Shown here one piece after another: positions 1 to 39,010 of a stretch of 64,000 bases of DNA; the stretch's first letter is position 1; each line of letters opens with the position of its first letter. The DNA is from Trueperaceae bacterium (lineage in GTDB: Bacteria > Deinococcota > Deinococci > Deinococcales > Trueperaceae), in the NCBI GenBank assembly GCA_034521815.1, contig JAXHLW010000012.1:64001-128000 (forward strand), in the 5' to 3' direction. The position numbers and the translations under genes were made by a program. A model generated the notes under the pieces. It was not told the DNA's origin. It saw only the letters and a program-made list of their open reading frames with translations, and did no database searches.

Positions 1-1358
1 GGGGTGACGAGGTCGTCGGCCCGCGTCTGCGCGGTCCGGGGCCGGTGCCGGCCGGCCACGATCCACGCCAGGTGGGCCACCAGGCTCCAGCCGCCGATCG
101 AGCCCACCGTCGCTGCGAGGCGCGCGAGTCCGAGAAGCTCCGGCGGCGGCGGCGCGGCGGCGTCGCCGTGGGCCAGCCGGACGCCGGCCAGGAGCAGCGA
201 CGCGGCCAGCAAGCAGCCGGCCGTGATCCATCCCAGCGCGGGGACCGTCATGTCGGCCAGCATCGGGATCGTGGTCGTGCGCGACGGATCGCGTCCCACG
301 AGCGGTGCGTAGCGGTGCTGCCAAGCGAGGAAGCCCACGATCTTGACCATCATTCCGCCGATGGCGAGCGCCAGACCGCCGGTCAGCAGCAACGCGATCG
401 CATCGGCCGGCCGTCCGAACGCCAGGAGCGTCCAGGCCGGCACGAACATGAGCACGCCGATCAGGAAGGTCGTCACGCCAACGTCGGTCCGCTTTCGCAT
501 CCGACGCGTCAGGATGGCGCGAACGTCGATGATCAACGCCGCCAACGCCACGCCCAGCGCGACGGTCACGCCGCGTGCGAGCCAGTCCGTCCCGCCGGCG
601 CCCGCGAACGACGTGGCCCGCCACGAGCCGGGCGTCCACGCCCCGATCGCCGCCAGCAGCACCGCCGCCCCGACCGCTCCAGAGACCCAGCGGAGCGGAC
701 GATCCGAGGCGCCGTGCGAGAGCACGAACATCGACAGCAGCTTGTGGCCCGCCCCCGCGATCGCCAGCACGAACGCGCCGATCAGCCCCAAGGTGAGGTG
801 CAGCGGGCGGACCGGACCCAGCGCCATGGCGACCCACGGAACGATCCGGCCCAGCGCGATCGCGGCGCCCAGCGCAACGGTGCCCCACAGCGCCGCTGCG
901 GAGGCGAGCACGGCTCCGGCGACCGCGTCCACGCGGCGGGCGGTCCGCACGGTCGCGACGAGATTGACCAGCAGGATCGTCGCGCCGATCAGCACCAGCG
1001 TGCCGCCGATCGCCAGCCATGCCGGCCGCGAGCCGGTCGCGAACCCGATGACGATCGCGAGCGAGCCTGCGCTGGACGTGGCCCACGTCGCGGCGCCCCA
1101 GCCCGGGGCGCACAACCGCGTGATCAGCAGCACCGGAACGAGCTGGTGCAACGCGCCGATCAGCACGCTGGCACCGAAGCCCAGCGTGAACACGTGAACG
1201 ATCGCCAGCACGCCCGGCACCGCGGGGTGGGCGAGGAGCAGTTCAGGTCGCAGCGCCAGCCCGGTCCAGAACGCCGCCAGGGACAGGGCGCCGACCGTCA
1301 TGAACCGTGCGGGAACGCTGAACGGAACGGCGTTGTCGCCACCCATCGCCCCCGTCAC
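1..1358 (-). CDS. Polytopic membrane protein of the type found with DUF2249 genes (heme-copper-oxidase-subunit-I-like/NnrS-like); 3' end runs off the window
   Basis: Not in the ORF track (no stop in window). Hand translation from GTG 1358 (GTGA overlap with the upstream stop) is open to position 1, with many TM segments and motifs HVFTLGF, LHQLVP, LHLTLGL, GHKLLSMF, KIVGFLAWQHRY. Confidence 0.75.
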   Translation of the reverse strand, partial: MTGAMGGDNAVPFSVPARFMTVGALSLAAFWTGLALRPELLLAHPAVPGVLAIVHVFTLGFGASVLIGALHQLVPVLLITRLCAPGWGAATWATSSAGSLAIVIGFATGSRPAWLAIGGTLVLIGATILLVNLVATVRTARRVDAVAGAVLASAAALWGTVALGAAIALGRIVPWVAMALGPVRPLHLTLGLIGAFVLAIAGAGHKLLSMFVLSHGASDRPLRWVSGAVGAAVLLAAIGAWTPGSWRATSFAGAGGTDWLARGVTVALGVALAALIIDVRAILTRRMRKRTDVGVTTFLIGVLMFVPAWTLLAFGRPADAIALLLTGGLALAIGGMMVKIVGFLAWQHRYAPLVGRDPSRTTTIPMLADMTVPALGWITAGCLLAASLLLAGVRLAHGDAAAPPPPELLGLARLAATVGSIGGWSLVAHLAWIVAGRHRPRTAQTRADDLVT

Positions 1359-1651
1359 GGCGCTTCGGACTCGGGGTCCCCGGCGTCCGCCTGGGCGCGC
1401 CGAATCGTCACGACGGCGTCGCCGTCCGGGCGTTCGTCGATCTCGAAGGTGGCGCCGCGAGCCTCGAGCTGGGGCAGCAGGTAGACCGGCACGCGGTCGT
1501 TGTGGATGGTCAGCCGCTGACCGGGCTCCAGCCGCTCGAACGCCTCGAGGGTGCGCACCATCGGGAGGGGCGGCTCGAGCCCGCGATTGTCGAGGAATAC
1601 CGTGGCGTCGCCGGTGTCGTCGCGAGGCCCGTGACCTGCATCGGACGTCAT
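1355..1651 (-). CDS. DUF2249 (TusA/SirA-like fold) protein
   Basis: LDNRGLEPPLPMVRTLEAFERL..G..L.IHNDRVPVYLLPQLEARG; leaderless ATG 1651 after TACCCT. Confidence 0.85.
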   Translation of the reverse strand: MTSDAGHGPRDDTGDATVFLDNRGLEPPLPMVRTLEAFERLEPGQRLTIHNDRVPVYLLPQLEARGATFEIDERPDGDAVVTIRRAQADAGDPESEAP

Positions 1652-1682
1652 GCGCCGAGGGTAGTCGCGGCGCGAATCCTGA

Positions 1683-1702
1683 GCCATGACCTCGGTCATG
1701 GC
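1683..1702. promoter_or_regulatory. CRP/FNR-type operator, copy 1, shared by divergent genes
   Basis: GCCATGAC-CTCG-GTCATGGC; centre 1692.5 is 41.5 bp from ATG 1651 (-) and 43.5 bp from ATG 1736 (+). Confidence 0.85.
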
Positions 1703-1735
1703 GCCCGCGCGGTGGCCGCCGCCATCCTCGGGCTC

Positions 1736-2037
1736 ATGACGGCTGCCGACCTCGACCGCTACGACGACGTCCGCGTCTCCGAGCTCCTCGAGGCTTCGCC
1801 CGAGGTGCTTCCGCTGCTGGTACGGCACGGCTTCGCGCCGCTTGGGAACGCGGCGATGCGCGCCGCGCTGGCGCCCACGGTGACGCTGGCGCAGGCCGTG
1901 CGCCTGCGCGGCCTGTCGGCGTCGGCGGCGCACCAGCTTCGGCGCGAGCTCGTCGAGCGTTCTGGCGCTCGACCTGCGCGGACGGCGCGTCGAACGAAAA
2001 CGCCACCGGGCATGCAGAGGTGGACGCGTGCCACTGA
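1736..2037 (+). CDS. DUF1858-like small protein (probable frameshift near the 3' end)
   Basis: VSELLEASPEVLPLLVRHGFAPLGNAAMRAALAPTVTLAQAVRLRG; the likely true end ...EVDACH* (TGA 2035-2037) is in another frame and overlaps the next start. Confidence 0.7.
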
Positions 2038-2352
2038 TCCGCACCGCCGAGCGGGCCCGGTTCCTCGACGCCGGTCCGTTCCCGCAGGCGCTGCAGGTCG
2101 GCGAGCGCCAAGCCGTGATGCTGCTCTGCCTGCAAGGCGCGCAGGAGCTCGTCGCGCCCAGCGACCGACCGGGCCGAGACGACCTTCGTCGTCCTGGACG
2201 GCGACGGCTTCGTGGTCGAGGGCGAGCGCCGGCACGCCGTCGAGGCGGGCGACGTGGTGCACGTCGCCGCCGGCATTCAGAAGGCGCTCGTCGCCGGCGC
2301 CGGGACGTTCACCGTCCTCGGCGTACGCTCCCTCTCCGCAGGCACGGACTGA
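2028..2352 (+). CDS. Cupin-domain protein, one frameshift near 2170
   Basis: MPLIRTAERARF...VMLLCLQGAQELVAP continues in the +1 frame as AETTFVVLDGDGFVVEGERRHAVEAGDVVHVAAGIQKALVA...GTD*. Confidence 0.75.
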
Positions 2353-2376
2353 AGTCCGGCCCGAAAGGACGTCCCC

Positions 2377-2613
2377 ATGTCCGACACCACCCTAGAGAGC
2401 ATCGACGTTCGTACCATCGCCCCACGCGACCGTCATCCGCTGCTGTTCCAGCGCTTCGACGCCCTCGCGTCCGGCCAGGCGTACGAGCTCGTGAACGACC
2501 ACGACCCGAAGCCGCTGTACTACCAGTTCCAGGCGGAGCGTCCCGGCGAGCTCGATTGGACCTACCTCGAGGAGGGACCCGAGGTGTGGCGCGTGCGTAT
2601 CGGCAAGCTCTGA
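2377..2613 (+). CDS. DUF2249 domain protein
   Basis: IDVRTIAPRDRHPLLFQRFDAL..G...ELVNDHDPKPLYYQF......W.YLEEGPEVWRVRIGK; AAGGA RBS. Confidence 0.92.
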   Translation: MSDTTLESIDVRTIAPRDRHPLLFQRFDALASGQAYELVNDHDPKPLYYQFQAERPGELDWTYLEEGPEVWRVRIGKL

Positions 2614-2631
2614 ACGGATGACCCGTACGAC

Positions 2632-2661
2632 GCGGCGCCGGCGAGATCTCGCCGGCGCCGC
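2632..2661. terminator. Perfect 30-bp palindrome after the DUF2249 gene, probable terminator
   Basis: GCGGCGCCGGCGAGA|TCTCGCCGGCGCCGC, 18 nt after the stop codon. Confidence 0.65.
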
Positions 2662-2728
2662 CGTCTCGAATCGGGCGTTCCTCGACGGTGCTACGATACG
2701 GACCGAGAGGACGTGGCACGCGACATTC

Positions 2729-3736
2729 ATGCCCATCCCGGCTCGATCGACCAGGACATGGCGGAAGAGGCTGAGAGGCGCGTTCGGCATCGTGGCTGCG
2801 GTCGTGGCCGTTGCCGTCGTGACGGGCTCGATCTTGCACGCGACGCTGTTCCGAGACGCATGGAAGCAGATCGAGCCGTACGGCCAGCTCGTCGACGTCG
2901 AAGACGGACGAATGCACGTCTATCGGATGGGAAACGGCGCCCGGACGATCGTCTTGTTGCCAGGTTTGGGTGTCGGGCTTCCGTCGGCCGACTTCGGGCC
3001 GCTGATGCGAAGGCTCAGCGAGACGTACACCGTCGCGACGGTCGAGTACTTCGGCGTGGGCTTCAGCAGCGAGACGTCGAGGCCGCGCACCGCCCGGAAC
3101 TATGTCGAAGAAACGAGAGTCGCGCTCCAGCGAGCGGGCCTCGGTCCCCCGTACGTGCTGATGCCTCACTCGATATCGAGCGTCTACAGCGAGTACTTCG
3201 CCGCGAGCTATCCGGAGGAGGTGGAAGCCGTCGTCTCGCTCGACGGTACGACGACCGCCCACTACGAAGAGATGCCGGCCATCGTGAAAGCCCTGCTTCC
3301 GGTCGCGAAGATTCAGCAAGCGATCGGTGCGACCTCGCTCATCGCGCCTCTGGTCATCGACAGGGCGAAGCTGCTCGCGAACGGCTATACGGAAAAGGAG
3401 ATCAGCGACATGATCGCGTTCGCGGGGTTCGCCCTGAACGACACGGTCTTGGAGCAGATTTCGAACTCGGCCGAGTTCATCGAACAGACGATGGACATGC
3501 CGTTTCCCGATTCGATCCCCTACTTCAAGGTCATCTCGAGGCAGAGCTATGAAACGTCGAACGCACAACTCGAGAACGCGAACATGACGCCGCAAGAATA
3601 CCATCAGCAGCATCTCGAGCGGATCGGCGAACACGCACAGTTCGAGGTGTTGGACGGGACGCATTTCATCTACCTCGGCAACGTCGGCCGGATTGCCGAG
3701 ATCACCGCTGAGCTCCTGCTCGAGGTGAAGCGCTAG
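2729..3736 (+). CDS. Alpha/beta-fold hydrolase with N-terminal membrane anchor
   Basis: TIVLLPGLG, PYVLMPHSISS nucleophile elbow, SLDG, C-terminal GTHFIY; visibly more AT-rich than its neighbours. Confidence 0.85.
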   Translation: MPIPARSTRTWRKRLRGAFGIVAAVVAVAVVTGSILHATLFRDAWKQIEPYGQLVDVEDGRMHVYRMGNGARTIVLLPGLGVGLPSADFGPLMRRLSETYTVATVEYFGVGFSSETSRPRTARNYVEETRVALQRAGLGPPYVLMPHSISSVYSEYFAASYPEEVEAVVSLDGTTTAHYEEMPAIVKALLPVAKIQQAIGATSLIAPLVIDRAKLLANGYTEKEISDMIAFAGFALNDTVLEQISNSAEFIEQTMDMPFPDSIPYFKVISRQSYETSNAQLENANMTPQEYHQQHLERIGEHAQFEVLDGTHFIYLGNVGRIAEITAELLLEVKR

Positions 3737-3750
3737 CAGCGTGTGCGGGC

Positions 3751-3780
3751 GCCTGACAAAATGGTGCCTGACAAAATGGT
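3751..3780. repeat. 15-bp tandem duplication
   Basis: GCCTGACAAAATGGT x2. Confidence 0.95.
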
Positions 3781-3798
3781 GCGTGGCTCGTGGAGCGC

Positions 3799-4197
3799 TT
3801 AGCTGCGCATCGGCCGCCTTGGCCGGAACAGGACCTCGACCCCGAGAGCCACGAAGCCCACGTTGGCCAGCCACGCCAGCCCACCCCAGGTCGCGAACCA
3901 GACCGGCCCCAGCCGGAATCCCCAGCCCAGCGTCATGCCGGTGACGGCGACGACGGTCGCGATCACCTGGATCAGGGCGAGCCCGGGACGACGGAACGGC
4001 ACGCCCCGGAACCGCGGGAGGGCGTGGTAGGCGACCCCTTGGATCATCAGCGTCACGAACCCCAGTGATTGCAGATGCGCGTGCGCCGGCCGCCATAGCG
4101 GCGTGAGCCAGCCGACGCCCATCGCCAGGCCCAACGTGGACCCGGTAAGGAACGCGACCAGCGCCGCGGCGATCGCGACGCGGCTGGCCGCGATCAC
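3799..4197 (-). CDS. Small 4-TM protein with a COX-subunit-I-like HAH motif
   Basis: PAHAHLQSLGFVTLMIQGVAYHALPRFRG; GTGA-coupled to the upstream cupin. Confidence 0.8.
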   Translation of the reverse strand: MIAASRVAIAAALVAFLTGSTLGLAMGVGWLTPLWRPAHAHLQSLGFVTLMIQGVAYHALPRFRGVPFRRPGLALIQVIATVVAVTGMTLGWGFRLGPVWFATWGGLAWLANVGFVALGVEVLFRPRRPMRS

Positions 4198-4517
4198 GCC
4201 GCTGCGGGTCCCGGCGTGATGATGCCGAGCACCAGGAAGCGTCCGTCGCCCGCCTGCGCGCCGTGGGGCGTGCCTGCGTCGCACGCGATCAGGGTGCCGG
4301 CCTGGGCTTGGAGCCGTCGGTCGCCGGCCCAGAGCTCGCCCTCGCCGTCCAGCGCCAGCAGGTGGACGCGCGGCTCGCCCCGCCCCGACACCTTCTGGCC
4401 CGCCTGCAGCGAGAACAGGACCAGCCGCGCCTCCGCGGTATCGCTCAGGATGCGGGTGCCGCGGCGCTCGCCGTACTCGGCCAGCGCGAGCAGGTCGACG
4501 CCTTCGAGCGGCGTCAT
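4194..4517 (-). CDS. Cupin-domain protein
   Basis: ARLVLFSLQAGQ...HLLALDGEG...AGTLIACDAGTPHG; ATGA-coupled. Confidence 0.8.
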   Translation of the reverse strand: MTPLEGVDLLALAEYGERRGTRILSDTAEARLVLFSLQAGQKVSGRGEPRVHLLALDGEGELWAGDRRLQAQAGTLIACDAGTPHGAQAGDGRFLVLGIITPGPAAA

Positions 4518-4741
4518 GCGTGCTCGCGCGGAAGCGCGCGCAGCTCGTCCAGCAGGGCGGCCACGTCCAGATCGGCGTCGTCGCACGCTTCGGCCAGCGT
4601 GGCGCTGCCGCCGCAGCAGGTGTCGATGCCGCGCTCCAGCAACAGGCCCGAGGCCTCGGGGACGAGGCGGAGAACGTCGTTCACGGTCGTGGTCGGCTCG
4701 AGGGCCGTCGAAGGCGTGGTGTCGATGCGTGGGGTGTCCAT
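4514..4741 (-). CDS. Stand-alone ScdA_N/DUF542 domain (the N-terminal domain of Ric/YtfE)
   Basis: TVNDVL...PEA...L...GIDTCCGGSATLAEAC....LD...LL.EL; no hemerythrin domain follows. Confidence 0.88.
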   Translation of the reverse strand: MDTPRIDTTPSTALEPTTTVNDVLRLVPEASGLLLERGIDTCCGGSATLAEACDDADLDVAALLDELRALPREHA

Positions 4742-4773
4742 GCGTGCAGCCTCGCCCGGATCGGGGTGGCTGG

Positions 4774-4791
4774 CCATGACCTCGGTCATGG
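4774..4791. promoter_or_regulatory. CRP/FNR-type operator, copy 2
   Basis: CCATGAC-CTCG-GTCATGG; centre 4782.5 is 41.5 bp upstream of ATG 4741 (-). Confidence 0.85.
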
Positions 4792-4890: not shown

Positions 4891-6114
4891 ATGAGCGACG
4901 AGCCACGCCCGACCCACCCCGTTCCCGACGTCGACGGCGAGCAGCTTCGCGCCGCCGTCCGTCGCCACTACGCCGCCCGCCTGAAGCAGGGCACGTGCTG
5001 CGGCACGGACACGCCGACATCGGACATGTTCGGCGTGCCGCTCGGTCTGGACGCTCCACCGGACGTCCCCACCTTCGGGTGCGGCGATCCGAACGCAGCG
5101 GCCTCGCTGCGCGAGGGCGAGACGGTGCTCGACCTGGGCAGCGGCGCGGGGTTCGACGCCTTCCGCGCGGCCGAGGCGGTCGGTCCTAGCGGCGAGGTGC
5201 TAGGTGTGGACATGACGCCGGCGATGCTGGCGCGGGCCAGGGACGGCGCCGCCCGGCTCGGCTATTCGCAGGTCCGCTTCCTGGAGGGCACGATCGAGCG
5301 GTTGCCGCTATCGGACGAAAGCGTGGACGTGGTGATCTCGAACTGCGTCGTGAACCTCTCAAGCGACGTTCCGCGCGTGCTGGACGAGGCTGCCCGGGTG
5401 CTCAGGCCCGGAGGACGGCTGCGGATCAGCGACACGTTCCGGGCGGGCTCGGTCCGGGCGATGCCCGATCATGAGACGTGGTGCACGTGCGAGGCGGGAG
5501 CGCACGATCCCGACCAGCTCGCCACCTTGGCGCGCGCCGCCGGGTTCGTCGACGTGTCGGTCGACGCGCCCCCGGCCGGAACCGAGGAGGGCGCCCTCTA
5601 CGGCGCGGTGCTCCACGGAACGAAGCCGACGATCGCGCCCTTGCGGGACGTCGACGCCGAGGTGGCGGCCCGGCTGCTGGCCGCATCCGGCCTGCCCCTC
5701 GCCGGCTGGTCCGCGCCGAACGTGGATCGCTGGGGAGCGTTCGACGGCCGCGCAGACGTCGACGACGGCGCAGAAGGTGGCCGCCTCGTCGGACTCGTCG
5801 CCCTCGAGACGCACGGCCGCCACGGGCTGCTTCGGTCGCTGACGGTCGTTCCCGAGGCGCGTGGACGGGGGCTGGCCACGTCGCTGGTCGCTCGCGCCCG
5901 TCGCGAAGCTCGGCGACGGAATCTCGAGACGTTGACGGGTCTGACGGAAACGATCCCCGACCTGCTCGTGCAGTGGGGATTTCACGAGGTGACGCGAGCG
6001 GACCTGCCGGACGCCCTGCGAGCGTCGCCTGAGCTGCAGGACGCCTGCCCCCAGAGCGCACGGGTGTTCACGGTCGACGCGCTGGCGCGGGACGAGACCC
6101 CGCTCGAGCGCTAG
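4891..6114 (+). CDS. arsM: Arsenite methyltransferase (ArsM-like) fused to an ArsN2-like GNAT acetyltransferase
   Basis: N-part: TCCG, FGCGDP, VLDLGSGAGFD, VISNCVVNL, WCTCEAGA. C-part: LAASGLP, GLLRSLTV..RGRGLA, LTET, ASPE....CPQSA. Confidence 0.8.
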   Translation: MSDEPRPTHPVPDVDGEQLRAAVRRHYAARLKQGTCCGTDTPTSDMFGVPLGLDAPPDVPTFGCGDPNAAASLREGETVLDLGSGAGFDAFRAAEAVGPSGEVLGVDMTPAMLARARDGAARLGYSQVRFLEGTIERLPLSDESVDVVISNCVVNLSSDVPRVLDEAARVLRPGGRLRISDTFRAGSVRAMPDHETWCTCEAGAHDPDQLATLARAAGFVDVSVDAPPAGTEEGALYGAVLHGTKPTIAPLRDVDAEVAARLLAASGLPLAGWSAPNVDRWGAFDGRADVDDGAEGGRLVGLVALETHGRHGLLRSLTVVPEARGRGLATSLVARARREARRRNLETLTGLTETIPDLLVQWGFHEVTRADLPDALRASPELQDACPQSARVFTVDALARDETPLER

Positions 6115-6217: not shown

Positions 6218-6628
6218 ATGAACGACGAGGACCTTCGTCGCGCGGTCGGGGCCGGCGTGCGCGCGGCCTTGCCGGGCGTGCGCTGGCTCGCGTTGTTCGG
6301 CTCGCGGGCTCGCGGCGATGCGCGGCACGACAGCGATGTCGACGTCGCCGTCCTCGCCTGCGAGCCGATCGCTGAGGAGCGGTTGCGAGCCGTTAGGGGC
6401 GATCTCGAGATCGCCGTCGGACGCGACGTGCATCTGATCGACCTGCGGCGCGTGTCGACGGTGCTTCGCAGCCAGGTCGTGGCGGACGCCGACGTGCTGT
6501 TCGCGGCCGGTGACGCCGACAGCGAACAGTTCCTGGATTTCGTCCTATCGGACTACGCGCGGCTCAACGAGGAGCGCCGAGACATTCTGCGCGACGTTCA
6601 CGAACGGGGGAGCGTCCTTGGTGGATGA
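6218..6628 (+). CDS. mntA: MntA-type minimal nucleotidyltransferase antitoxin (type VII TA)
   Basis: LFGSRARGDARHDSDVDVAV (GSx10DxD); overlaps the HEPN gene. Confidence 0.88.
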   Translation: MNDEDLRRAVGAGVRAALPGVRWLALFGSRARGDARHDSDVDVAVLACEPIAEERLRAVRGDLEIAVGRDVHLIDLRRVSTVLRSQVVADADVLFAAGDADSEQFLDFVLSDYARLNEERRDILRDVHERGSVLGG

Positions 6629-7031
6629 CGTCGCCTTGAACAAGTGCGCGACGATCGAGCTCTGTCTCGCCAGGGTGCGTGAGGAGTACGGCGACGGAAC
6701 CGAGCTCGAGTCGGATCAGCGACGCCAGGACGCTCTGGTACTGAACCTGCTCAGGGCGTGCGAAACGGCGATCGACCTTGCGATGCACGCTGTTCGGAAG
6801 GCGTCGTTGGGCGTGCCGCAAAGCAGCCGGGACGCGTTCGGCTTGCTGGCGGAGGGCGGCCGCATCGCGCCGGATCTCGCCGAGGAGCTCAAGCGCATGG
6901 TGGGATTTCGGAACATCGCCGTCCATCGTTACCAGGACCTGGATCTCGACGTCTTACACGCCATCGTGCGGGAGAAGCTGCACGTGTTCGAGACGTTCGT
7001 GCGGACCCTGCTCCAGCCGCCGCGGCCGTGA
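6621..7031 (+). CDS. hepT: HepT/DUF86 HEPN ribonuclease toxin
   Basis: QDALVLNLLRACETAIDLAMH...MVGFRNIAVHRY (Rx4HxY). Confidence 0.9.
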   Translation: MDDVALNKCATIELCLARVREEYGDGTELESDQRRQDALVLNLLRACETAIDLAMHAVRKASLGVPQSSRDAFGLLAEGGRIAPDLAEELKRMVGFRNIAVHRYQDLDLDVLHAIVREKLHVFETFVRTLLQPPRP

Positions 7032-7083
7032 GGCGAATACGCGTGGAGGCTGCACGCGTCCGTCCCCGACCCCAGCGGATCGC

Positions 7084-7527
7084 TCAGCCCGCCCCGGCTC
7101 GACCGAGGCCGAGCCTCTTGTGCACCGCCAGCATGCAGGCGTCCTGGACCACGTCGATCCCGGCCTCGGCGAGCTGGCGTGCGACTTCGGCGTGACGGAT
7201 CCCCTGCTGCAGCCAGACCACCTTCGGAAGCGGCCGCATAGCCAGAATCTCCTCAGCGTGCGCGGGAAGGTTTTCGCTACGGCGGAAAACGTCGACGACG
7301 TCGATCGGCTCGTCGAGGTCGGTCACCTTGCCGCGTGGCGTCTCGCCGAACAGCTGCTGGTCGGTGTAGCGGGGGTTCACCGGCACGATCCGGTAGCCGT
7401 GCTCGCGTAGGTAGCGCGGCACGTAGTGGGCCGGTTTGCCGGGGTCGGGATGGGCGCCCAGCACGGCGACCGTGTGGGCGGTCTGGAGCACGGTCCGGAG
7501 CGCTTCGTCGCTGGTGAGCAAGGGCAT
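7084..7527 (-). CDS. CoA-binding protein (YccU-like)
   Basis: VAVLGA.....KPAHYVPRYL...GY.IVPVNP, IDVVDVFRRSE, VWLQQGI, VVQDACM. Confidence 0.9.
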   Translation of the reverse strand: MPLLTSDEALRTVLQTAHTVAVLGAHPDPGKPAHYVPRYLREHGYRIVPVNPRYTDQQLFGETPRGKVTDLDEPIDVVDVFRRSENLPAHAEEILAMRPLPKVVWLQQGIRHAEVARQLAEAGIDVVQDACMLAVHKRLGLGRAGAG

Positions 7528-7615
7528 CGCGTCTCCTTCCTTTCGCCAACGGGCCACGTCGGTCTGAACGCCGAGGTGGGCGTCCTCGGGCGGAGGCACC
7601 TGCACGATCCCTTCG

Positions 7616-7650
7616 AATTGACGCCAAATTCACGCCACGACGTTCATCCT
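7616..7650 (+). promoter_or_regulatory. 11-bp direct repeat upstream of a -10-like box
   Basis: AATTGACGCCA AATTCACGCCA (7616-7637), then CATCCT (7645-7650). Confidence 0.55.
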
Positions 7651-7726
7651 TACGTGTCCTGCCGCGCAGGTTCGCGGCGGCGGAGACGACGACCCGACCC
7701 TACCGCGTCACCGAAAGGAACCCCTC

Positions 7727-9107
7727 ATGCTCCATCCTTTCCGTTCCCTGCGTTTCGGCGCCTTCGTCCTCGCATCGTTGGCCATGCTGGTTGTGCTCGC
7801 AGCCTGTCAAGAGATAGGTGCGAGCCCCGGTGGTGACGGAGAAACCGTCTCCGTCACGATCGCGCCGCAGCTGGCGCAGTCTGGACTCACGGCCCAAGGG
7901 ATCGTGTCGGATCTGGTCATCTCCGATGTATTGGTTTTCGTGCGCGATGCGTCGACCGGTGATCCCACCAGCGACCCGGAAACGGAACCGGACTGTCTGG
8001 TGTTCGCCAGCGACGGGACCGTAGACGATACCGTCATCGATCCGACCACCGACGAGTGCGCGTTCTCGATCTGGGACGGAACCTCCGTGCTCCCCCGGAC
8101 GCTGCAGCTGCCGCCGCGAGACGGCGCAGGTGATCCGATTCCGTACGACTTCGGCCTGAACGTGCGAAGTCCTGTCGACGAAGGCCTCGGCCTCGTGATT
8201 ACCGCCGCCTTCGCGTCCGAGTCGATTTCCGAGCTCACGACGGCCACGACGCTGCCCTTCGCGAACCTGCAATCGTTCCTCGGCGCTGCGTTCTTTCGTA
8301 CCTACGCCCCGAACGACACGGCGGTGTGCCCCCCGTTCGACCTCGAGGTCGAACGGGGTGAGATCGTCCCGCTCTTCCTGTTTCCGTTCGGGTACGCAAC
8401 GGGGGGCGAGATCTGTTTCGGGGGCACGGCCTCGTCTACGCGGTCGCTCATACCTTTCGACGATTTCGGCGTCGGGCCCACCAACGTCACGCTCGACGGC
8501 GACCCTGCACCCTCGCTTCTTCTCGACGACTCGAAGCGGGGCGTACTCCTGGAGGTGCCATCCTCCGCAGCGCCGGGACAGACGATCGACGTATCGGTCC
8601 CCGTCAACGGTGTTCAAGGCCATCTTCGCTGCGGACTCGGACCAGAATCCTGACGCCGCGTTGGTGGACGGAACCCAGTTCGCTGGTGAGACCGCCTCGA
8701 TCGAGCTGCAAGTGGTCGAGCCCCCGATAGGCGCCGGCATCGCATCCGACCTGGTGGCGCCGGTGATCGAGTCGGTTTTGACGTCGGCTGCGGTCGACAC
8801 CGTGACCCTGGTGATCGGACCGACGACCGACCCGGCCGACGTGACGGACGTCGTCGCCTTTCTCGGGGTTCAGCAGGTCGCGCTCGAAGTGATCAACAAG
8901 ACTACGCAAACGGGCGCCGACGGCATGGTCTACAGCGCCCGCATCTGCAGCGACTTCGGACGCTTCACCGCTGGGACCAACCTCGAGCTGACGTTCTACG
9001 CGAGCGATCCCAGTAGCAACCAGAGCGCCGCTTTCGTACATCCGATCACCATCAACTCCGTCTATCCCGGTCCCCTCGACAGCTGCAGTTCGACCTCGGA
9101 ACTGTAG
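7727..9107 (+). CDS. Hypothetical lipoprotein, one frameshift near 8605
   Basis: AAGGA RBS, signal peptide with lipobox VLAAC; acidic beta-rich sequence; ORFs 7727-8653 and 8358-9107 join as ...VSVPV/TVFKAIFAAD... Confidence 0.7.
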
Positions 9108-9124
9108 CTCCACGGAAGAACCTG

Positions 9125-9156
9125 CGTCGCGCCCCCGGTGTGCCGGGGGCGCGGCG
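9125..9156. terminator. Hairpin between convergent genes
   Basis: CGCGCCCCCGG-tgtg-CCGGGGGCGCG. Confidence 0.7.
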
Positions 9157-9187
9157 TCGAGCATGGTGGGCGTGGACGGCCGAGGCA

Positions 9188-9876
9188 TCAGGCGGCGACG
9201 CCGAACAGGAAGCCCACCCCGGCCGTGATGGCCATGGCGAGCGCGCCCCAGAACGCCACGCGGGTCGTGGCGCGGCCGACCGGCGCGCCGCCGACGGCGC
9301 CGGCGAGCGCGCCGAGCGCCGCGAGCAACGCCAGCGAGCCGAGCGCGACCCCCACGAGACGAGACCGGCGGGGAGGAGCAGGGCGAGGAACAGCGGCAGC
9401 GCGGCGCCCACCGCGAAGGTGCCGGCCGAGGCGAACGCGGCCTGGATCGGCCGGGCGGTGTGGACCGCGGTGATCCCGAGCTCTTCGCGGGCATGGGCGC
9501 CGAGCGCGTCGTGCTCCATGAGCTTCGTCGCGACCTCGTCGGCGAGAGCCGAGTCGAGGCCGCGCTCACGGTAGAGCTCTGCCAGCTCGCGGTGCTCCGC
9601 CTCGGGCAGGCCGGCGAGCTCGCGACGCTCGCGCTCCAGGTCGGCGCTCTCGGTGTCCGCCTGGGAGCTGACCGAGACGTACTCGCCGGCGGCCATCGAC
9701 ATGGCGCCCGCGACCAGGCCGGCGACCCCGGCGACCAGAATGCCCGACCTGCCGGTCCCGGCGGCGGCCACGCCGAGCACGAGGCTGGCGGTGGACACGA
9801 TCCCGTCGTTGGCGCCGAGCACGGCGGCGCGGAGCCACCCGACGCGCTGCATGAAATGGCGTTCGGGATGTTTCAT
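9188..9876 (-). CDS. VIT1/CCC1 family Fe/Mn transporter, frameshift near 9355
   Basis: WLRAAVLGANDGIVSTASL, AGAMSMAAGEYVSVSSQAD; C-terminus ...RVAFWGALAMAITAGVGFLFGVAA* in a shifted frame. Confidence 0.92.
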
Positions 9877-10017
9877 GAGGGCACTCCTTCGAGCGAGTCG
9901 GCGCATCGCGACCGCGGAACCGTCCGCACGAGCATACGGCGCCGTGTGAGGGATGCCGATGACCGGACGCACGGGTCGCACCGGGCCGCGATGTGATCGG
10001 GACCGGGCCGTCCGGAC

Positions 10018-10347
10018 CTATCCGCGCGGTGCGTACATCATCACGACGACGCCCGCCAACGCCAGCGCGGCGCCGATCAGGTCGAACCGGTCCGGACGTA
10101 CGTCGTCCACCAGCCAGCCCCACGCCAACGCCATCGCGATGAAGATGCCGCCGTATGCCGCGTATACGCGACCGAAGTTCGCCGGCTGGAAGGTGGCTAC
10201 GACGCCGTAGAGCATCAGCAGCGCACCGCCCACGACGCCGGGCACCACGCCCGCGTCCGCTCGTAGTGCGCGCCACACCAGGTAGCCGCCCCCGATCTCG
10301 CACAGTCCGGCGACGAAGAACAGCAGTAGCGACCGCCCGATATCCAC
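10018..10347 (-). CDS. YnfA (UPF0060) small membrane protein
   Basis: AGLCEIGGGYLVW, FGRVYAAYGGIFI, PDRFDLIG. Confidence 0.92.
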   Translation of the reverse strand: MDIGRSLLLFFVAGLCEIGGGYLVWRALRADAGVVPGVVGGALLMLYGVVATFQPANFGRVYAAYGGIFIAMALAWGWLVDDVRPDRFDLIGAALALAGVVVMMYAPRG

Positions 10348-10391
10348 GGAACCGAGCCTACCGCTCGGCGCCGTGCCAGGCTGTGCCCACG

Positions 10392-10595
10392 TCAGGCATC
10401 GCGCAGCCGGGCCCTTGCCTCGTGCCACGCCAGTCCCGCGGCGAGCGACACCAGCCCGACCCCCCAGATCACCGGCTCGACGAAGAACGCCAAACCCAGG
10501 CACGACGCCGGGCCGCAGGCGGACACCCAGCGCGGCCAGCGGCGCGCCTCCGCCGGGAGACGACCGGCGCTGCGGCCGACCGCGCGACACGCCAT
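10392..10595 (-). pseudogene. Probable C-terminal remnant of an APC-family amino acid permease
   Basis: RLPAEARRWPRWVSACG.ASCLGLAFFVEPVIWGVGLVSLAAGLAWH resembles the last two TMs of APC permeases; nothing upstream. Confidence 0.45.
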
Positions 10596-11079
10596 GGCGT
10601 CGTACCACGCGTCGTACCCTGCCGGCGTGGACGAAGCTCGGATCGAAGCGTTTCTGCATCGGCACCTGCCGCTGGCCCGCGCCATGGAGGTGCGGGTGGT
10701 CCGCGTCGACGAAGATGGCGCGCGACTGACCGCGCCGCTGGCGCACAACCACAACCATCACGGCACGGCGTTCGGAGGGAGCCTGTCGGCGCTCGCCATG
10801 CTGGCGGGGTGGGCGTTCGTCCACGCCGCCCTGGAGCGCGCCGGGATCGAGGGCGCCGAGGTGGTGATCCACGAGGTGCGCTTCGCGTTCACGAAACCGG
10901 CGCGCGGCGACCTCGAGGCCTGGGTGGCCGCGCCGGAGGACGCCGCATGGGACGTCTTCGCTCGGGCGCTCGCTCGGCGTGGGCGGGCCCGTCTGGATCT
11001 CGGCTGCGAGCTTCGCAGCGAGGATGCCCAGGTCGCCCGCGCCGAGGGGCGCTACGTCGCGGTTCGTGGCGGGAGCTGA
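10594..11079 (+). CDS. YiiD C-terminal-type hot-dog thioesterase domain protein
   Basis: FLHRHLPLARAM, APLAHNHNHHGTAFGGSL, GRARL, EGRYVA. Confidence 0.85.
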   Translation: MASYHASYPAGVDEARIEAFLHRHLPLARAMEVRVVRVDEDGARLTAPLAHNHNHHGTAFGGSLSALAMLAGWAFVHAALERAGIEGAEVVIHEVRFAFTKPARGDLEAWVAAPEDAAWDVFARALARRGRARLDLGCELRSEDAQVARAEGRYVAVRGGS

Positions 11080-11291
11080 GCAAGCCGCATCGCCCGGCGG
11101 CCGCGGCTCGTGATCGGACGCGCGCTCGCTACGCGCGACCTGCGCGCGACCTGCGCGCGCCGATGACCTGGATGGCGGCGCACACCGACGTACCATGGTG
11201 GATCACGGCACCCGGACGCTAGAGGCGGACCGTGTCGCCGGCGACCAGACACTCGCGGCTCGTCACGCGAGGTCGGCGCTCGAGGAGGACG

Positions 11292-12848: not shown

Positions 12849-13550
12849 TCACGCGCCGCTCGCTCGAGCCTCGAGCCCGGCGCGGTCGAGGATGGTGATG
12901 CGGTGGCGCTCGACGGCGATCAGCCCCTCGGCGGTCAGCGTGCGGAGCGTGCGCTGCAGCACGTCCTCGACCGTGCCCAGGCGCGCCGCGAGTTCGGCCT
13001 GCGTTTCCCACGTGCGCCGCGTCAGCACGGCGCCCTCAGCGTGGTGCAGCAGGTACTTGGCGGTGCGGGCCTCGAGCGGCAGGAGGGAAAGGTCCTCGAC
13101 GATCTGAACGACCTCGATCAGCCGTCGAGCGAGGTGTCGTGTGATCGGCCACAGCAAGTGGGGACGCTCGTCGACCAGCGCCTGCAGCGCGCGCAACGGG
13201 ACGCGCCAGAGGTGGGACGGTTCGAGCGCGACGAGGGTCGCGGAGTTGGGGACGTTCAGCAGCCAACCGACCTGGTTCACCACGTCGCCCGCCCCGAAGT
13301 AGTGGAGGACCTGCTCGCGTCCGGTCGGGGCCAGCTTGCTGCCCTTCAGCCAGCCGTGGTCGACGACGAAAAGGCCGTCCGGTGGGTCGCCTTCGAGAAA
13401 CACGGTGACGCCGGGTCCGACCGCGATCGCGGTCGCCTCGCGCGCTAGACGTTCCACCGCCTCGGGATCCAAGCTGGCGAGGAACGGAACGGCAGCGAGC
13501 ACTACGTGGGCGGATCGGGGTCGATGGTCATCACCGTTGGTGCCGCTCAC
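12849..13550 (-). CDS. Crp/Fnr family transcriptional regulator
   Basis: cNMP-binding fold (VFLEGDPPDGLFVV..G.LK, GREQVL, ATLVALE), LSLLPLEAR, HTH TQAELAARLGTVEDVLQRTLR; leaderless GTG after TATACT. Confidence 0.92.
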   Translation of the reverse strand: MSGTNGDDHRPRSAHVVLAAVPFLASLDPEAVERLAREATAIAVGPGVTVFLEGDPPDGLFVVDHGWLKGSKLAPTGREQVLHYFGAGDVVNQVGWLLNVPNSATLVALEPSHLWRVPLRALQALVDERPHLLWPITRHLARRLIEVVQIVEDLSLLPLEARTAKYLLHHAEGAVLTRRTWETQAELAARLGTVEDVLQRTLRTLTAEGLIAVERHRITILDRAGLEARASGA

Positions 13551-14560: not shown

Positions 14561-16782
14561 CTACGCCTCGGCGACCGCGATTCCCTGGCGCTTCGCCTCG
14601 TACATGGCCTGGTCGGCCTGGCTCAGCAGCGCGTCGGCGCTCATGTCCCCGCCGGAACGGCGCACCGCCATGCCGATCGAGGCGCCGATGCGCACGCCCT
14701 GGATCTCGACCTCCTGCACGGCGCGGCTGAAGCGTCGCGCCGCTGCCAGGGCTCCGGGCGCGTCGGTGTCGGGAAGGATCATGGCGAACTCGTCCCCGCC
14801 CCAGCGGTACAGCCGGTCGCTGTCGCGCGCCACCGAGCGCAGCGCGTCCGCGACGCAGACGAGCGCTTCGTCGCCGGTAGCGTGGCCGAGGCGGTCGTTC
14901 ACCGCTTTGAAGCCGGTCAGGTCGGCGATCAACAAGGCGGTCGGCGTTTCGCTCCGATCCGCCCGTGCCAGCTCCTTCGCGAGCCCTTCGTCGAAGGCGC
15001 GGCGGTTCTCCAGCCCGGTCAGGGCGTCTCAGGGTCGAGGCGAGGTGCAGGTCGCGGCGGTGCCGCGCCTCCCTCAGCACGAAGGCGATGGCGGGCGCGA
15101 ACGCTTTGGCGACCTTGGTGTCCTCGTCCTGGAAAGCGTTCGCGTCGCTGAACGCGTCGAGGTTGACGACCGCGATCACGTCGCCGCGGTGCACGATCGG
15201 CATGCACAGATTGGCGACGATGTCGCGCAGGCTCGGCTGACCCTCGGTGCGGCCGTCGCTCGCCACGACGGAGGCGCGCTCCATCCCTTCCGGATCCCGA
15301 GCGATGCGGGCCGCGCCGACGATCCAGGCGTCGGGATCGCCGTGCCAGGCTCGCAGGTGCTCCTTGCCGAGGGTCACGTCCGCCAGGGAGACTGGGTCGA
15401 ACCCGACCACGCCGGCGTAGTGGAACCGATCGTCCTGTCCAACCAACAGGCTGCCGGCCTCGGCCCCGGGTACCAGATCGACCAGCTCGGCCAAGAGGTC
15501 CTGCGTGGCTTCGTCGAAGCCGAGCTCCAGCAGGCGGTGCTCCACCGCGAGCATGCGCTCCATCACGCGCGCCTCGCGGTCACGTTTTAGCCACAGCCGC
15601 AACGCTCGGGCGAAGTCCGCGACGAGGGCCCGGTCGTCAGCGGTCCATTGCCGGGGGGCGTCGTGGAAGAGGAGCAGATGCGTTTCGCGTAGCTCCGCAG
15701 CGGCATCGGACGGACCGCGGCCGCACGGACCCCGGCGTCGACGAAGGGCGGTGCGGCGAGGGGATCCTCGGCGTAGGCGGCGACGAAGCGTGCCACGCCC
15801 GCCCGGTAGGCCTCGTGGATCAGGCCGGTGCCCAGCGGCCACGTGCGGTGCAACAGGTCGTCGAGCTCCGGCCAGTCGTCCGTAACGACGGTTCTGGCTC
15901 TGAACACGCCACCTCCGTAGTGGACCACGGCGACGGCCCGGATGCCCAGCTCCTCGCGCAGTGTCGCCAGCGCGGCCTCGAGCGCCGCTTCCTGCGGCAG
16001 GTCGGCCACCAGGATCTCTCCGAGGCGGGAGCGCGCCAGCGCACGCCGACGGACGCGCAGGATCGCCTCGGCCCGCCCCGCCGCAGCGACGACGCCGACG
16101 ATCGCTTCGCGTTCGGCGGGCAGGAACGGGCGGGAACGGCGCACCTCGACGACGGCGGTGAGCGTGTCCTCGGAATGGATCGGCACCGCCATCGCTCGCT
16201 CGGAGGGCGCATGGGTCGCCATGCCGTGCGTCTGCGCTCGCAGCACGAACGCCTCCGGCGCGTCGCCCTCCGGCGCGTCGCCCTTCGGCGCGTCGCTTCC
16301 CGGCGCGTCCACGACGAGTCCGTCGCCGGGCACGATGCGCCACGTCGTCACGCGGTCCGGATCGAACCTTCCCAGAAGACGCGGCAGCTCGTGCAAGACG
16401 TCGAACGTGGCGCCGCTGCCCTCGACCTCTTCGAGATGGTCCAGCACCGTTTCTAGATGCGCGCTCGGCGTGGGAGGCGCGCCGAAGAACCGTCGGCGCA
16501 CACCTTTCGGCAGCGCTTGGGGAGGAACACCGCGGCGGCAGCCAGGGCCATGCCTGCGGCCCCGGCCAGAGAGACGATCGTCGCTTCGGCCACGACCGCG
16601 GCCGCCACCAGGACCAAGGAGGCGATGCGCGGCCTAGGTCCCGCGCTGCGCGCGGCGGTCCATGCGATCAGGGCGACCGCTGCTCCACGTGGCGCGGCGC
16701 CCAGCGGTGCTACCAGGGACGTGGCGTACACGAACGCGCCGAGAAGAATCGGACCGAGCGGATGCGTGCGAAGCTCAGGCAC
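14561..16782 (-). CDS. Membrane-anchored GAF-domain diguanylate cyclase, at least 3 frameshifts
   Basis: N-terminal TMs, GAF-like segments (NLCMPIVHRGDVIAVVNLD), DLTGFKAVNDRLGHATGD, YRWGGDEF, GASIG, ADQAMYEAK; start approximate. Confidence 0.8.
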
Positions 16783-17045
16783 GGGTACGCGCCCATCCTC
16801 TCGCCGGCTCGGGCCACACGTGAACGGCTCGCGGCGCGTTCGCGCCGCCACGGCGTGTCGGCCGGTCGCTCGTCGTTCGCCCCCGCATCGTACGGTCGCC
16901 CTTTCCCGCCGCGTCGCACCGTTCCGTTGGACGGTCGCGTGTCGTCGACGATTCGCGCAAAGGCTACCACCCGCCCAGCGTCGATTCGTGGGCCCACCGC
17001 GCGCCAGCGGCCGTCGCGACAGGGCGGGATCGCTCAGAACGGCGA

Positions 17046-17065
17046 GCCATGACCCGGGTCATGGC
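17046..17065. promoter_or_regulatory. CRP/FNR-type operator, copy 3
   Basis: GCCATGAC-CCGG-GTCATGGC; centre 17055.5 is 42.5 bp upstream of ATG 17098; -10 CATGCT at 17085. Confidence 0.85.
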
Positions 17066-17097
17066 GGGCGGAGGCGAGAACCGCCATGCTCGGCGTC

Positions 17098-17718
17098 ATG
17101 ACGGTCGATGCAGATCCCCTCGCGCAGAGTGTCGTCGTCGCCTACGGAAGCACCTTCGGCACGACGGAGGAGACCGCCCGGCAGATCGCCGAAGCCCTCG
17201 CGGCGCGCACCGGCCGGCGGCCGACGCTGGCCGACGTGGCCTGGACCGGCATGGCGGAGATCGTCCGGCACGACGTCCTGATCCTGGGCTCCTCCACCTG
17301 GGACGAGGGGGAGCTGCAGCCCGCCTGGAACGTCGCACTGAGCGCATTGTCCGCCAGCGACTTGCGGGGCCGCCGCGTCGCGGTGTTCGGTTGCGGCGAC
17401 CGCGCCGGCTATCCGGATACGTTCGGAGACGCGCTCGGCATCCTCCTGAGGCACGCTCGCGGCGCCGGCGCCGAGTCGATCGGCGCGTTCCCCATGGAGC
17501 GGCTCGGGTATGACCCGGGTACGTTCGAAGCGGAAGAGGTCCGCGACGGCGACGACCTCGTCGGCTTGATCCTGGACGACGAGGAGGACGACGAGGCCCG
17601 GGTCGCGCAGGTCGCGTGGTGGTGCGATCAGCTGGCGAGCGAACTGGGCCAAGGGCTCGGCGACGCCACCCAGCGGTCGGTCGTAGCGCTGCATCGCGGC
17701 GAGATCCCGGCGCGATAG
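17098..17718 (+). CDS. Long-chain flavodoxin
   Basis: YGSTFGTTE, ILGSSTWDEGELQ, VAVFGCGD...YPDTFGDALG, VGLILDDE. Confidence 0.9.
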   Translation: MTVDADPLAQSVVVAYGSTFGTTEETARQIAEALAARTGRRPTLADVAWTGMAEIVRHDVLILGSSTWDEGELQPAWNVALSALSASDLRGRRVAVFGCGDRAGYPDTFGDALGILLRHARGAGAESIGAFPMERLGYDPGTFEAEEVRDGDDLVGLILDDEEDDEARVAQVAWWCDQLASELGQGLGDATQRSVVALHRGEIPAR

Positions 17719-39009: not shown

Positions 39010-39010
39010 C

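Follow-up and report, generated by a model that had tools for sequence, protein, structure and literature searches.

A Trueperaceae locus related to the accessory and regulatory genes of the Thermus-type denitrification island

A Thermus-type gene set gathered in 5 kb

In this study, a locus at the beginning of a 64,000-nucleotide (nt) stretch of DNA from a Trueperaceae bacterium (assembly GCA_034521815.1, contig JAXHLW010000012.1, positions 64,001 to 128,000 of the forward strand; the whole stretch is referred to as the window) was analysed. Sequence comparison gives good support to the view that the accessory and regulatory gene sets of a Thermus-type denitrification island are gathered here, in rearranged form, within 5 kb. 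The content of the locus, equally well supported by such comparison, comprises a drpA orthologue, the domains of DrpB in split form, two oxidase-like membrane proteins (termed the large and the small protein), an nsrS-nsrT pair, and an extra cupin. There is likewise good support for placing the genes behind a TTGACC/ATGACC-N2-GGTCAT operator that is bound by NsrR in Thermus and partly overlaps the DnrT footprint. The original prediction had put the eight genes forward as its best candidate for an undescribed system; this is not supported, since the set is a relative of named Thermus genes. What is new here is the conserved synteny of the large protein gene, with DUF2249 upstream and DUF59 downstream, and a predicted docking of DUF2249 on the large protein.

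As an explanation of the locus as a whole, we regard it as moderately probable that this Thermus-type set is a branch of a denitrification or nitric oxide (NO) regulon that is anchored in the membrane, senses N-oxides, gives feedback, and carries out repair. In this mechanism, regulators responding to N-oxides or anoxia would act at the palindrome and switch the genes on. Both oxidase-like membrane proteins would bind heme through a few conserved His residues and would perceive, within the membrane, a signal consisting of NO, another N-oxide, or a redox change. From the cytoplasm, the TusA-like DUF2249 protein would dock on the large protein; together with the helical DUF1858 and ScdA_N domains, the cupins, and a DUF59 protein predicted beyond the window edge, it would relay the signal to Fe-S or CRP-type regulators, or re-set them. 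The relay would yield feedback on the denitrification genes, provided that signalling runs in the direction assumed here.

Relationship to nsrRST and drpAB of Thermus

The region has a G+C content of approximately 72%, and genes were chosen by third-position GC and homology. The eight open reading frames (ORFs) listed in the original prediction are real, and searches with hidden Markov models (Pfam and NCBIfam) confirmed two DUF2249 domains, one DUF1858, and one ScdA_N. The two cupins matched Cupin_2, but with 26.0 and 25.4 bits both remained under the Pfam gathering score of 27.2. As a gene count, eight falls short: a ninth gene, a hydrolase at 2618..3736, had not been listed. The large protein runs off the window.

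On the reverse strand, a gene for a stand-alone ScdA_N protein of 75 amino acids (aa) with a CCGG motif (4514..4741; Pfam ScdA_N, E = 2.5e-12) is followed by those for the 107-aa cupin B (4194..4517; Cupin_2, E = 1e-5, below the cut-off) and the small membrane protein, a 132-aa four-helix protein recognised by homology (3799..4197). ScdA_N and cupin B overlap by 4 nt (ATGA), as do cupin B and the small protein (GTGA). The nic cluster of Thermus likewise has an ScdA_N-only protein followed by an overlapping Cupin_2 protein behind the palindrome (Alvarez et al. 2017, PMC5748679). NsrS was described as a 65-aa protein with an ScdA domain and NsrT as a 98-aa cupin, with the nsrS stop overlapping the nsrT start (PMC5748679). 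The order and the stop/start overlaps of nsrS, nsrT, and the next four-helix ORF in Thermus are those of the window. The ScdA_N protein is 49% identical to a DUF542 gene of T. thermophilus pTHTHE1601, cupin B is 64% identical to the gene at the nsrT position, and the small protein is 56% identical to the ORF after nsrT in pTHTHE1601. Cupin B had matches in 21 Thermus plasmids (63–67% identity, tblastn); ScdA_N gave no tblastn match to the plasmids at 1e-3, and its Thermus orthologue was found via the neighbouring cupin. In the annotation of T. thermophilus SG0.5JP17-16, nirS, norB, and norC are followed by divergent genes whose products are Rrf2, a DUF542 protein, a small cupin, a hypothetical protein of 125 aa, and a YwiC-like protein; this context is that of the nsrRST cluster (PMC5748679). 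The Thermus pair thus adjoins nsrR (Rrf2), norCBH, and nirS, whereas none of these stands beside the pair in the window. In pTHTHE1601 (locus L081), a YwiC-like membrane protein (6721-7818, forward strand) comes after the small oxidase-like ORF that follows nsrT, and 3 kb beyond it lie arsenite-oxidase-type genes whose annotation reads arsenate reductase (azurin).

The second named relative is DrpA. DUF2249b (2377..2613, forward strand, 78 aa; Pfam DUF2249, E = 6e-31) is 73% identical to the 72-aa ORF at the drpA position of Thermus locus L027 and, like DrpA, consists of a single DUF2249 domain with a conserved NDHDPKPLYYQ core; over 23 sequences from 2 phyla plus the window sequence, 21 columns were invariant. 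Three Thermus loci show the order narK/T-like transporter, 72–90-aa DUF2249 protein, 273–275-aa DUF1858-2xDUF2249 protein, small oxidase-like protein, protoglobin-domain ORF, large oxidase-like protein, and DUF59. The drpA and drpB genes encode 72 and 273 aa, overlap each other, and come just after narT (PMC6282519); the first two DUF2249 ORFs of the Thermus loci fit drpA and drpB because sizes, overlap, and position match this description. The drpA gene is the first of the bicistronic drpAB operon after narT (Chahlafi et al. 2018, PMC6282519), whereas DUF2249b is third in a DUF1858-cupin-DUF2249 operon. The box is found upstream in Thermus as in the window; the window genes, unlike drpAB, are not downstream of a nar operon.

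DrpB carries DUF1858 and two DUF2249 domains in one protein. In the window, by contrast, DUF1858 (1736..2035, forward strand; domain at 1736-1978, Pfam DUF1858, E = 1e-10) and the TusA-like DUF2249a (1355..1651, reverse strand, 98 aa; Pfam DUF2249, E = 7e-19) are separate and on opposite strands. In DrpB, the former has its equivalent in the first domain and the latter in the last; the middle DUF2249 has no separate counterpart. DUF2249a shares 62–75% identity with its orthologues in loci L001-L004 and 29–41% with DrpB-like C-terminal domains, and, judged from this alignment, it belongs to the type found as the last domain of DrpB. The window DUF1858 showed no BLAST similarity to the DrpB-like protein; its domain matched PDB entry 2fi0 at E = 7e-6. 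In Thermus, Pnar and Pdnr become derepressed when DrpA or DrpB is missing (PMC6282519), and DrpB is attached to the membrane without any membrane segment (PMC6282519, PMC7694296).

In nsrS-nsrT (49% and 64%), DrpA (73%), and the CTTGACCNNGGTCATGG box, the set therefore coincides in part with a characterised pathway. The link to N-oxide respiration suggested by the original prediction is borne out by the nsrS, nsrT, and drpA orthologues and the box, and its remark that the set has no defined biochemistry still applies.

Operator palindrome and candidate regulators

The palindrome has the form GCCATGACC-N2-GGTCATGG, that of the published Thermus box. The common palindrome of the original prediction was recovered as exact copies of the 19-mer GCCATGACCTCGGTCATGG at 1683-1701, between the divergent operons of DUF2249a and DUF1858, and at 4773-4791, before ScdA_N; a third copy, with a CG centre, is at 17046-17064, in front of a flavodoxin-domain gene (box and gene at 17046..17718, forward strand; Flavodoxin_1, E = 3e-18). 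When up to 2 mismatches were allowed, ATGACCNNGGTCAT had 6 matches in the window (3 of them exact), where 1.36 would be expected; in 100 shuffles, a count of 6 was never attained. In the left half-site, the window has A where Thermus has T.

Each box of the window is centred 41.5–43.5 nt from an ATG. Measured from its centre, the first box is 41.5 nt from the ATG of DUF2249a and 43.5 nt from that of DUF1858, the second is 41.5 nt upstream of the ScdA_N ATG, and the third is 42.5 nt upstream of the second ATG (17098) of the flavodoxin gene. The box is also centred 41.5–42.5 nt upstream of the DUF2249a orthologues in L001-L004. In 3/3 Thermus loci, one box has its centre 41.5 nt before the gene of the large membrane protein, and another precedes the drpA position. 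The box of Thermus PnsrS (5762-5775 of L081) is centred 44.5 nt upstream of nsrS. In the L002 module, a box precedes a flavodoxin-like gene whose product is 41% identical to that of the box-bearing flavodoxin gene of the window. Scanning for sigma-70-type promoters revealed none, and no -35 hexamer, at the box promoters; the only one found belongs to an ArsM-like gene at 4891.

In Thermus, CTTGACCNNGGTCATGG is conserved in PnirJ, PnorC, Pnrc, PnsrR, and PnsrS, is required for the shift of PnorC by NsrR (Rrf2 family), and partly overlaps the footprint of the CRP-family activator DnrT (PMC5748679). DnrT sites lie at about -43 (PMC7694296), and Pdrp is dependent on DnrT (PMC6282519). The window encodes a CRP/FNR-family protein at 12849..13499 on the reverse strand (cNMP_binding, E = 2e-18; HTH_Crp_2, E = 6e-11) with 34% identity to the product of a CRP-family gene beside the L003 module; in both L003 and L004 such a gene adjoins the module after DUF59. 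The window protein is a candidate for binding the palindrome. Divergent from the box-bearing flavodoxin gene, at 15590-17033 on the reverse strand, lies a gene for a protein with two weak GAF domains; Thermus DnrS likewise has a GAF domain (PMC6282519).

The membrane proteins as heme-copper oxidase homologues

The large protein (1..1358, reverse strand) starts within the DUF2249a gene, the two overlapping by 4 nt (GTGA), and the last 12 of its 464 aa lie beyond the window start; 452 aa are visible, and P0001 is an identical full-length protein of 464 aa. Neither membrane protein matched Pfam or NCBIfam, including Pfam COX1 and PF05940. The AF2 model of the large protein, built with 29 homologues, had a predicted local distance difference test (pLDDT) score of 92.3 and displayed a 12-helix fold of three four-helix units with three-fold pseudosymmetry. 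Its best Foldseek matches were cbb3 CcoN and NorB of the cytochrome c-type NO reductase (cNOR), with template modelling (TM) scores of 0.59–0.65 and E of about 1e-5, and all 50 listed matches were oxidase or NO reductase (NOR) subunits. The family profile matched CcoN at E = 1.6e-6. Close relatives are few: in a word-indexed search, 40 were scored at E ≤ 1e-3, two distant ones carrying PF00115, and the large membrane ORF of Thermus shares 35% identity. The large protein is a divergent heme-copper oxidase homologue, in agreement with the likeness to subunit I that the original prediction had noted for both membrane proteins and that Foldseek and profile matches to CcoN and NorB upheld.

The small protein belongs to the same group. 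Its family profile matched cbb3 CcoN in three stretches at E = 1.6e-17, with its HxH aligned to the helix-10 HVH of CcoN, and this HxH was invariant in 28/28 aligned homologues. The 264 representative relatives at E ≤ 1e-3 comprised single units of 130–150 aa as well as proteins of 400–600 aa matched three times, and the profile also matched the large proteins in three stretches. The small protein is thus a divergent heme-copper oxidase homologue made of one four-helix unit with the helix-10 HxH. If it rebuilds the oxidase fold, it would be expected to form a trimer. In oxidases, the helix-10 HxH His pair carries both hemes.

Heme-copper oxidase and NOR catalytic subunits are defined by six conserved His for two hemes and CuB or FeB. 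The large protein shares the 12-helix fold of CcoN and NorB but has not kept the six canonical ligands. H55 and H187 were invariant in 29/29 aligned homologues, H71 and H203 were common, and H55, Q72, and H187 were the only invariant polar candidates for ligands. In the profile alignment, H55 falls on the second His in the HVH of CcoN helix 10; no HxH is present in helix 10 of the large protein. The His conservation that the original prediction proposed to check was thus found in both families (29/29 and 28/28), and its ScdA_N Cys motif aligned with that of Thermus NsrS.

These features bear on whether the oxidase-like proteins might be a new NO- or O2-reducing enzyme, with flavodoxin or quinol as donor and the small proteins as assembly factors. 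The fold of the large protein, the helix-10 HxH kept by the small protein, and the flavodoxin gene in the regulon would agree with an enzyme, and use of NO by other oxidase-annotated genes beside nsrRST has been speculated upon (PMC7694296). Against this, the large protein has two invariant His only and no helix-10 HxH, no Pfam COX1 match was obtained, and the locus contains neither a subunit II nor a cytochrome c partner. Given this incomplete set of ligands, catalysis of NO reduction is unlikely, and we consider the enzymatic alternative improbable.

Two further families were compared. NnrS resembles the large protein in being a 12-helix membrane protein of NO regulons, and NnrS clusters are among its Atlas neighbours (TM 0.74–0.77), including one in which 19% of the members carry DUF1858; the large protein differs in its conserved residues and in lacking a PF05940 match. 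The second comparison concerns the 'HCO homology' families (HCO, heme-copper oxidase) of Pei, Li, Kinch and Grishin (2014), which reportedly are either single-unit four-helix proteins most like helices 9–12 or 12-helix proteins with two conserved His, and which are said to occur in denitrification or NO contexts. The features of the small and the large protein fit this general description, so that they may belong to such families. DUF2249 is associated with heme-copper oxidase homologues (Pei et al. 2014 as cited in PMC11218638).

An Atlas cluster of 83 members, with proteins of 613 aa that all carry PF10006 (DUF2249), has a model that matches the large protein at TM 0.81, which suggests a predicted fused DUF2249-large-protein form. 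No fused or longer forms of the large protein were seen among proteins of 819–2335 aa, a range that excludes this 613-aa candidate. Another Atlas neighbour of P0001 is an 848-aa actinobacterial cluster with multicopper-oxidase and cupredoxin domains, possibly an oxidase-like membrane domain fused to a NirK-like enzyme.

Soluble proteins

In TusA sulfur carriers, a conserved Cys lies in a Cys-Pro loop. DUF2249a scored 28.5 against Pfam TusA (cut-off, 28.6), and the corresponding loop reads Glu-Pro-Pro-Leu-Pro in DUF2249a and Glu-Met-Pro-x-Pro in its relatives; sulfur transfer by the TusA-like DUF2249 is unlikely because the Cys-Pro persulfide motif is replaced (by Pro-Pro in DUF2249a). The AF2 model of DUF2249b (pLDDT 91.1) is predicted to have a TusA/SirA-like beta-alpha-beta-alpha-beta-beta fold. 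Its best full-length matches were TusA/SirA-like (2lxr, 3hz7, and 3lvj_C, TM 0.62–0.65), together with 8j4c_A at 0.64, all with E of at least 0.046. The title of entry 8j4c describes the TusA-like YeeD(TsuB) in complex with the membrane transporter YeeE(TsuA); the fold of DUF2249b is alike. No significant match emerged when solved structures were searched with the DUF2249 sequence, and no signal peptide was seen by eye in DUF2249b.

Cupin A (2028..2352, forward strand; Cupin_2, E = 7.7e-6, below the cut-off) is without canonical His ligands, the motif having been read by eye. In the ScdA_N protein, the CCGG motif aligns with those of S. aureus ScdA and Thermus NsrS. A hemerythrin domain is absent from it, the NCBIfam match covering only positions 2-52 of the 216-position RIC model, so that both statements of the original prediction on this protein hold. 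The RIC/YtfE/ScdA di-iron repair proteins share the ScdA_N domain and its Cys-Cys-Gly-Gly motif with the window protein and differ in their hemerythrin di-iron domain, which the window lacks; a full ScdA_N-hemerythrin protein is present in the Bacteroidota module.

Conserved neighbourhoods of the large protein

A total of 307 relatives of the large protein were found (one genome per species), and the best 80 were profiled with phmmer and jackhmmer, with a Pfam check on 70 ORFs from ten loci. These 80 loci came from Bacteroidota (73), Thermus (3), Trueperaceae (3), and a metagenome-assembled genome (MAG) labelled Deltaproteobacteria/MYXO (1). Co-occurrence across phyla, which the original prediction had put forward as a check, was evident in them.

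DUF59 (FeS_assembly_P) lay directly downstream of the membrane gene in all 73 loci that reached far enough (66 Bacteroidota, 6 Deinococcota, and the Myxococcota-labelled MAG). A DUF2249 domain was encoded within 900 nt upstream on the same strand in 74/76 loci, with relatives from three phyla; the two loci without it are from Thermus, in which drpB stands before an additional small oxidase-like gene. In Bacteroidota the order is fixed: a DUF2249-ScdA_N-hemerythrin fusion, DUF1858-DUF2249-DUF2249, the membrane protein, DUF59, and Rrf2, with ScdA_N upstream in 53/53 loci and Rrf2 downstream in 59/65. The jackhmmer hemerythrin profile was insensitive, flagging 22/53 loci, yet Pfam found the domain in 4/4 checked. 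A NorB resembling the quinol-type NOR (qNOR) occurred somewhere in 8/73 loci. Trueperaceae loci L003 and L004 have the layout of the window, with the CRP-family gene after DUF59 and the small oxidase-like gene after a DUF2249-cupin fusion. In 3/3 Thermus loci, a protoglobin-domain ORF (E = 7.5e-10, with a weak ThiS-like end) stands between the two membrane genes (L007, 9097-9933; L027, 9094-9930; L042, 5284-5772) and is possibly a second heme sensor in the operon. A DsbA-like gene follows DUF2249b in L002 and is also found near the module in L041.

This gene content could also be understood as membrane-tethered repair of NO-damaged metal centres, in which ScdA_N, DUF1858, DUF2249, and DUF59, with hemerythrin in Bacteroidota, would rebuild nitrosylated centres of the Fe-S or heme type; we hold this to be rather doubtful. 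Similarly doubtful is its corollary that the oxidase-like proteins would be heme or iron donors or NO sinks, signalling not being their main job. The Bacteroidota DUF2249-ScdA_N-hemerythrin fusion is a RIC protein with an added DUF2249 (4/4 loci checked with Pfam), which would suit repair, as would the Fe-S assembly domain following the membrane gene in 73/73 loci and Rrf2 in 59/65 Bacteroidota loci; restoration of the NsrR cluster by NsrS and NsrT was proposed by the authors of PMC5748679. On the other hand, no hemerythrin domain occurs in the window or in the Deinococcota loci, and the only DUF2249 mutant phenotypes known are regulatory (PMC6282519). Repair overlaps with the sensing and feedback branch preferred here, and the two may be halves of one device.

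Predicted docking of DUF2249a on the large protein

Complex prediction, suggested for the membrane protein with DUF2249, ScdA_N, and cupin, was run for the pair of the large protein and DUF2249a. The score was 0.62, as compared with 0.06 for the best of three controls. This mark was reached by 116/157 solved complexes and 2/215 mismatched pairs, counts that are only rough since custom alignments were used. Prediction runs agreed in at least 56% of contacts, and the partner pLDDT was at least 72. On the large protein, the predicted contact is made by those ends of helices 6, 8, and 10 that carry positive charge and presumably face the cytoplasm; contact residues include F343, W346, G355, and R288 and, on DUF2249, the Pro-x-Pro-Met loop. 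Of its 15 invariant residues, 6 were among the 22 interface residues (hypergeometric p = 2e-5), a value not independent of the predictor. The models support, but do not prove, that the TusA-like DUF2249 protein binds the large protein from its cytoplasmic side. To our knowledge, no solved complex of this kind exists; YeeD reportedly sits on the cytoplasmic face of YeeE.

Docking of this type would explain the membrane attachment of DrpB, because its C-terminal TusA-like domain would dock on the oxidase-like protein. If true, it would supply the transmembrane element absent from the model of the Thermus authors. We tentatively propose that oxidase-fold heme membrane proteins and TusA-like DUF2249 adaptors might together make up a transmembrane device that senses N-oxides, occurs widely, and provides the membrane link so far lacking for nitrate sensing by DrpA and DrpB in Thermus. 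Such a device, with relatives in Deinococcota, Bacteroidota, and the Myxococcota-labelled MAG, could perhaps represent a so far undescribed signalling use of the respiratory oxidase fold. In a literature search whose scope excluded Pei et al. 2014 and the Thermus supplements, DrpB or DUF2249 was not tied physically to oxidase-like proteins and the ORF after nsrT was not mentioned.

Gene integrity and points against the preferred explanation

Translational coupling, assumed for the three mini-operons in the original prediction, was seen in part: 4-nt overlaps join DUF2249a to the large protein and ScdA_N, cupin B, and the small protein to one another, but cupin A and DUF2249b are 24 nt apart, and the DUF1858 and cupin A frames are broken. 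The DUF1858 frame stays open until 2395, and comparison with L002-L004 places the orthologous C-terminus and stop (2033-2035) in a different frame; this stop overlaps the cupin A start, as in L003 and L004. Cupin A is split over two frames near 2150-2160, with one extra base relative to its orthologues (tblastn with the intact L003 orthologue); the Trueperaceae orthologues are intact, single-frame genes of 105 aa. The breaks may be assembly errors or real decay. Truncated or split-looking ORFs also occur at 20809-23817 and 28094-31097 (reverse strand), including NACHT/NB-ARC fragments, a BTAD piece beside an NB-ARC-TPR protein, and an epimerase without the first ~100 profile positions; they hint at assembly frame errors or gene decay and so bear on the two breaks.

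The alpha/beta-hydrolase gene at 2618..3736 (forward strand; Abhydrolase_1, E = 1e-6; N-terminal anchor) has a GC content of 62–66% against approximately 72% around it, and phmmer found no homologue in the 80 related loci. In L003, the small membrane gene directly follows the DUF2249-cupin fusion gene with no hydrolase between them, and because this order holds in L003 and L004 the window hydrolase looks like an insertion. Going by these comparisons, it is an intervening gene outside the conserved module.

The state of these genes might mean that a denitrification island was acquired by transfer and that the locus is what is left of it, decaying and without function. The occurrence of two frame breaks in a span of 200 nt, a foreign-looking hydrolase gene mid-locus, the lack of nar, nir, nor, and nsrR among 59 ORF stretches scanned nearby, and the interruption of the corresponding operon in L002 by an insertion sequence (IS) would be in line with decay. 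Yet 6/8 ORFs are intact: their third-position GC is high, their motifs are conserved, and the 4-nt overlaps have been kept. The three palindromes are all perfect, and both breaks lie near short homopolymer runs (by eye) and could be assembly errors. A functionless remnant seems unlikely. The IS element in L002 (7501-8541, reverse strand; rve integrase, HTH_21) lies within the DUF1858-cupin-DUF2249 operon of a Trueperaceae MAG.

Several observations weigh against the membrane-anchored sensing, feedback, and repair branch that we prefer. With 2/8 genes frame-broken, the window copy may have lost part of its activity. Among the 59 window ORF stretches scanned, nar, nir, and nor genes (COX1/NorB included) were not seen, and no Rrf2 gene was detected in the window by tblastn or Pfam. 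Class II promoters of the CRP/FNR (DnrT-like) type have a 5-4-5 palindrome centred near -41.5 relative to the transcription start. The 41.5-nt spacing is the position of a class II activator only if transcripts are leaderless, and a Shine-Dalgarno-like run precedes the ATG in Thermus PnsrS. As 73/80 loci are from related Bacteroidota, the neighbourhood counts cannot be treated as independent. Invariant residues were not enriched in the part of the predicted interface contributed by DUF2249 (3/8, p = 0.2). From Thermus, DrpA was reported to be periplasmic, which fits a purely cytoplasmic relay poorly (PMC6282519), and NsrS and NsrT left NsrR binding unchanged in electrophoretic mobility shift assays (PMC5748679).

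Other genes in the window

The gene at 4891-6114 (forward strand) encodes an arsenite-methyltransferase-like domain (PRK11873, E = 9e-65, below the cut-off) fused to an ArsN2-like GNAT domain. Its TTGACA-17-TATCTT promoter ends 6 nt ahead of the ATG, a distance suggestive of a leaderless transcript. Having this sigma-70-like promoter of its own and no counterpart in the related loci, the gene was rejected as a module member. A second ArsM-like methyltransferase gene at 31764-32720 adjoins an OsmC gene. A nucleotidyltransferase (Polbeta) and HepT-like pair at 6218-7031 (forward strand) looks like an MNT-HEPN toxin-antitoxin module, and the reverse strand at 9052-11196 encodes an iron/manganese transporter of the VIT1 family and a YnfA-family domain in which a long ORF ends. 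At 38518-41640 (reverse strand), a NosL-like ORF (E = 4e-5) near an ABC ATPase gene may represent nitrous oxide (N2O) reductase accessory genes; no nosZ was seen among the window ORFs scanned.

Significance of the gene family

Taken alone, the window is ordinary, being another, partly broken copy; the open biology lies in the function of the family, not in this copy. Where bacteria lack NarXL-type systems, nitrate and NO have to be sensed by other means, and the Thermus proteins DrpA, DrpB, NsrS, and NsrT have been without a known mechanism or membrane partner. The comparison made here ties these four proteins to two oxidase-like membrane families across three phyla. If the predicted contact is true, it would give a role to DUF2249, DUF1858, and non-catalytic oxidase homologues, and would aid the reading of denitrification and N2O-related genes in metagenomes.

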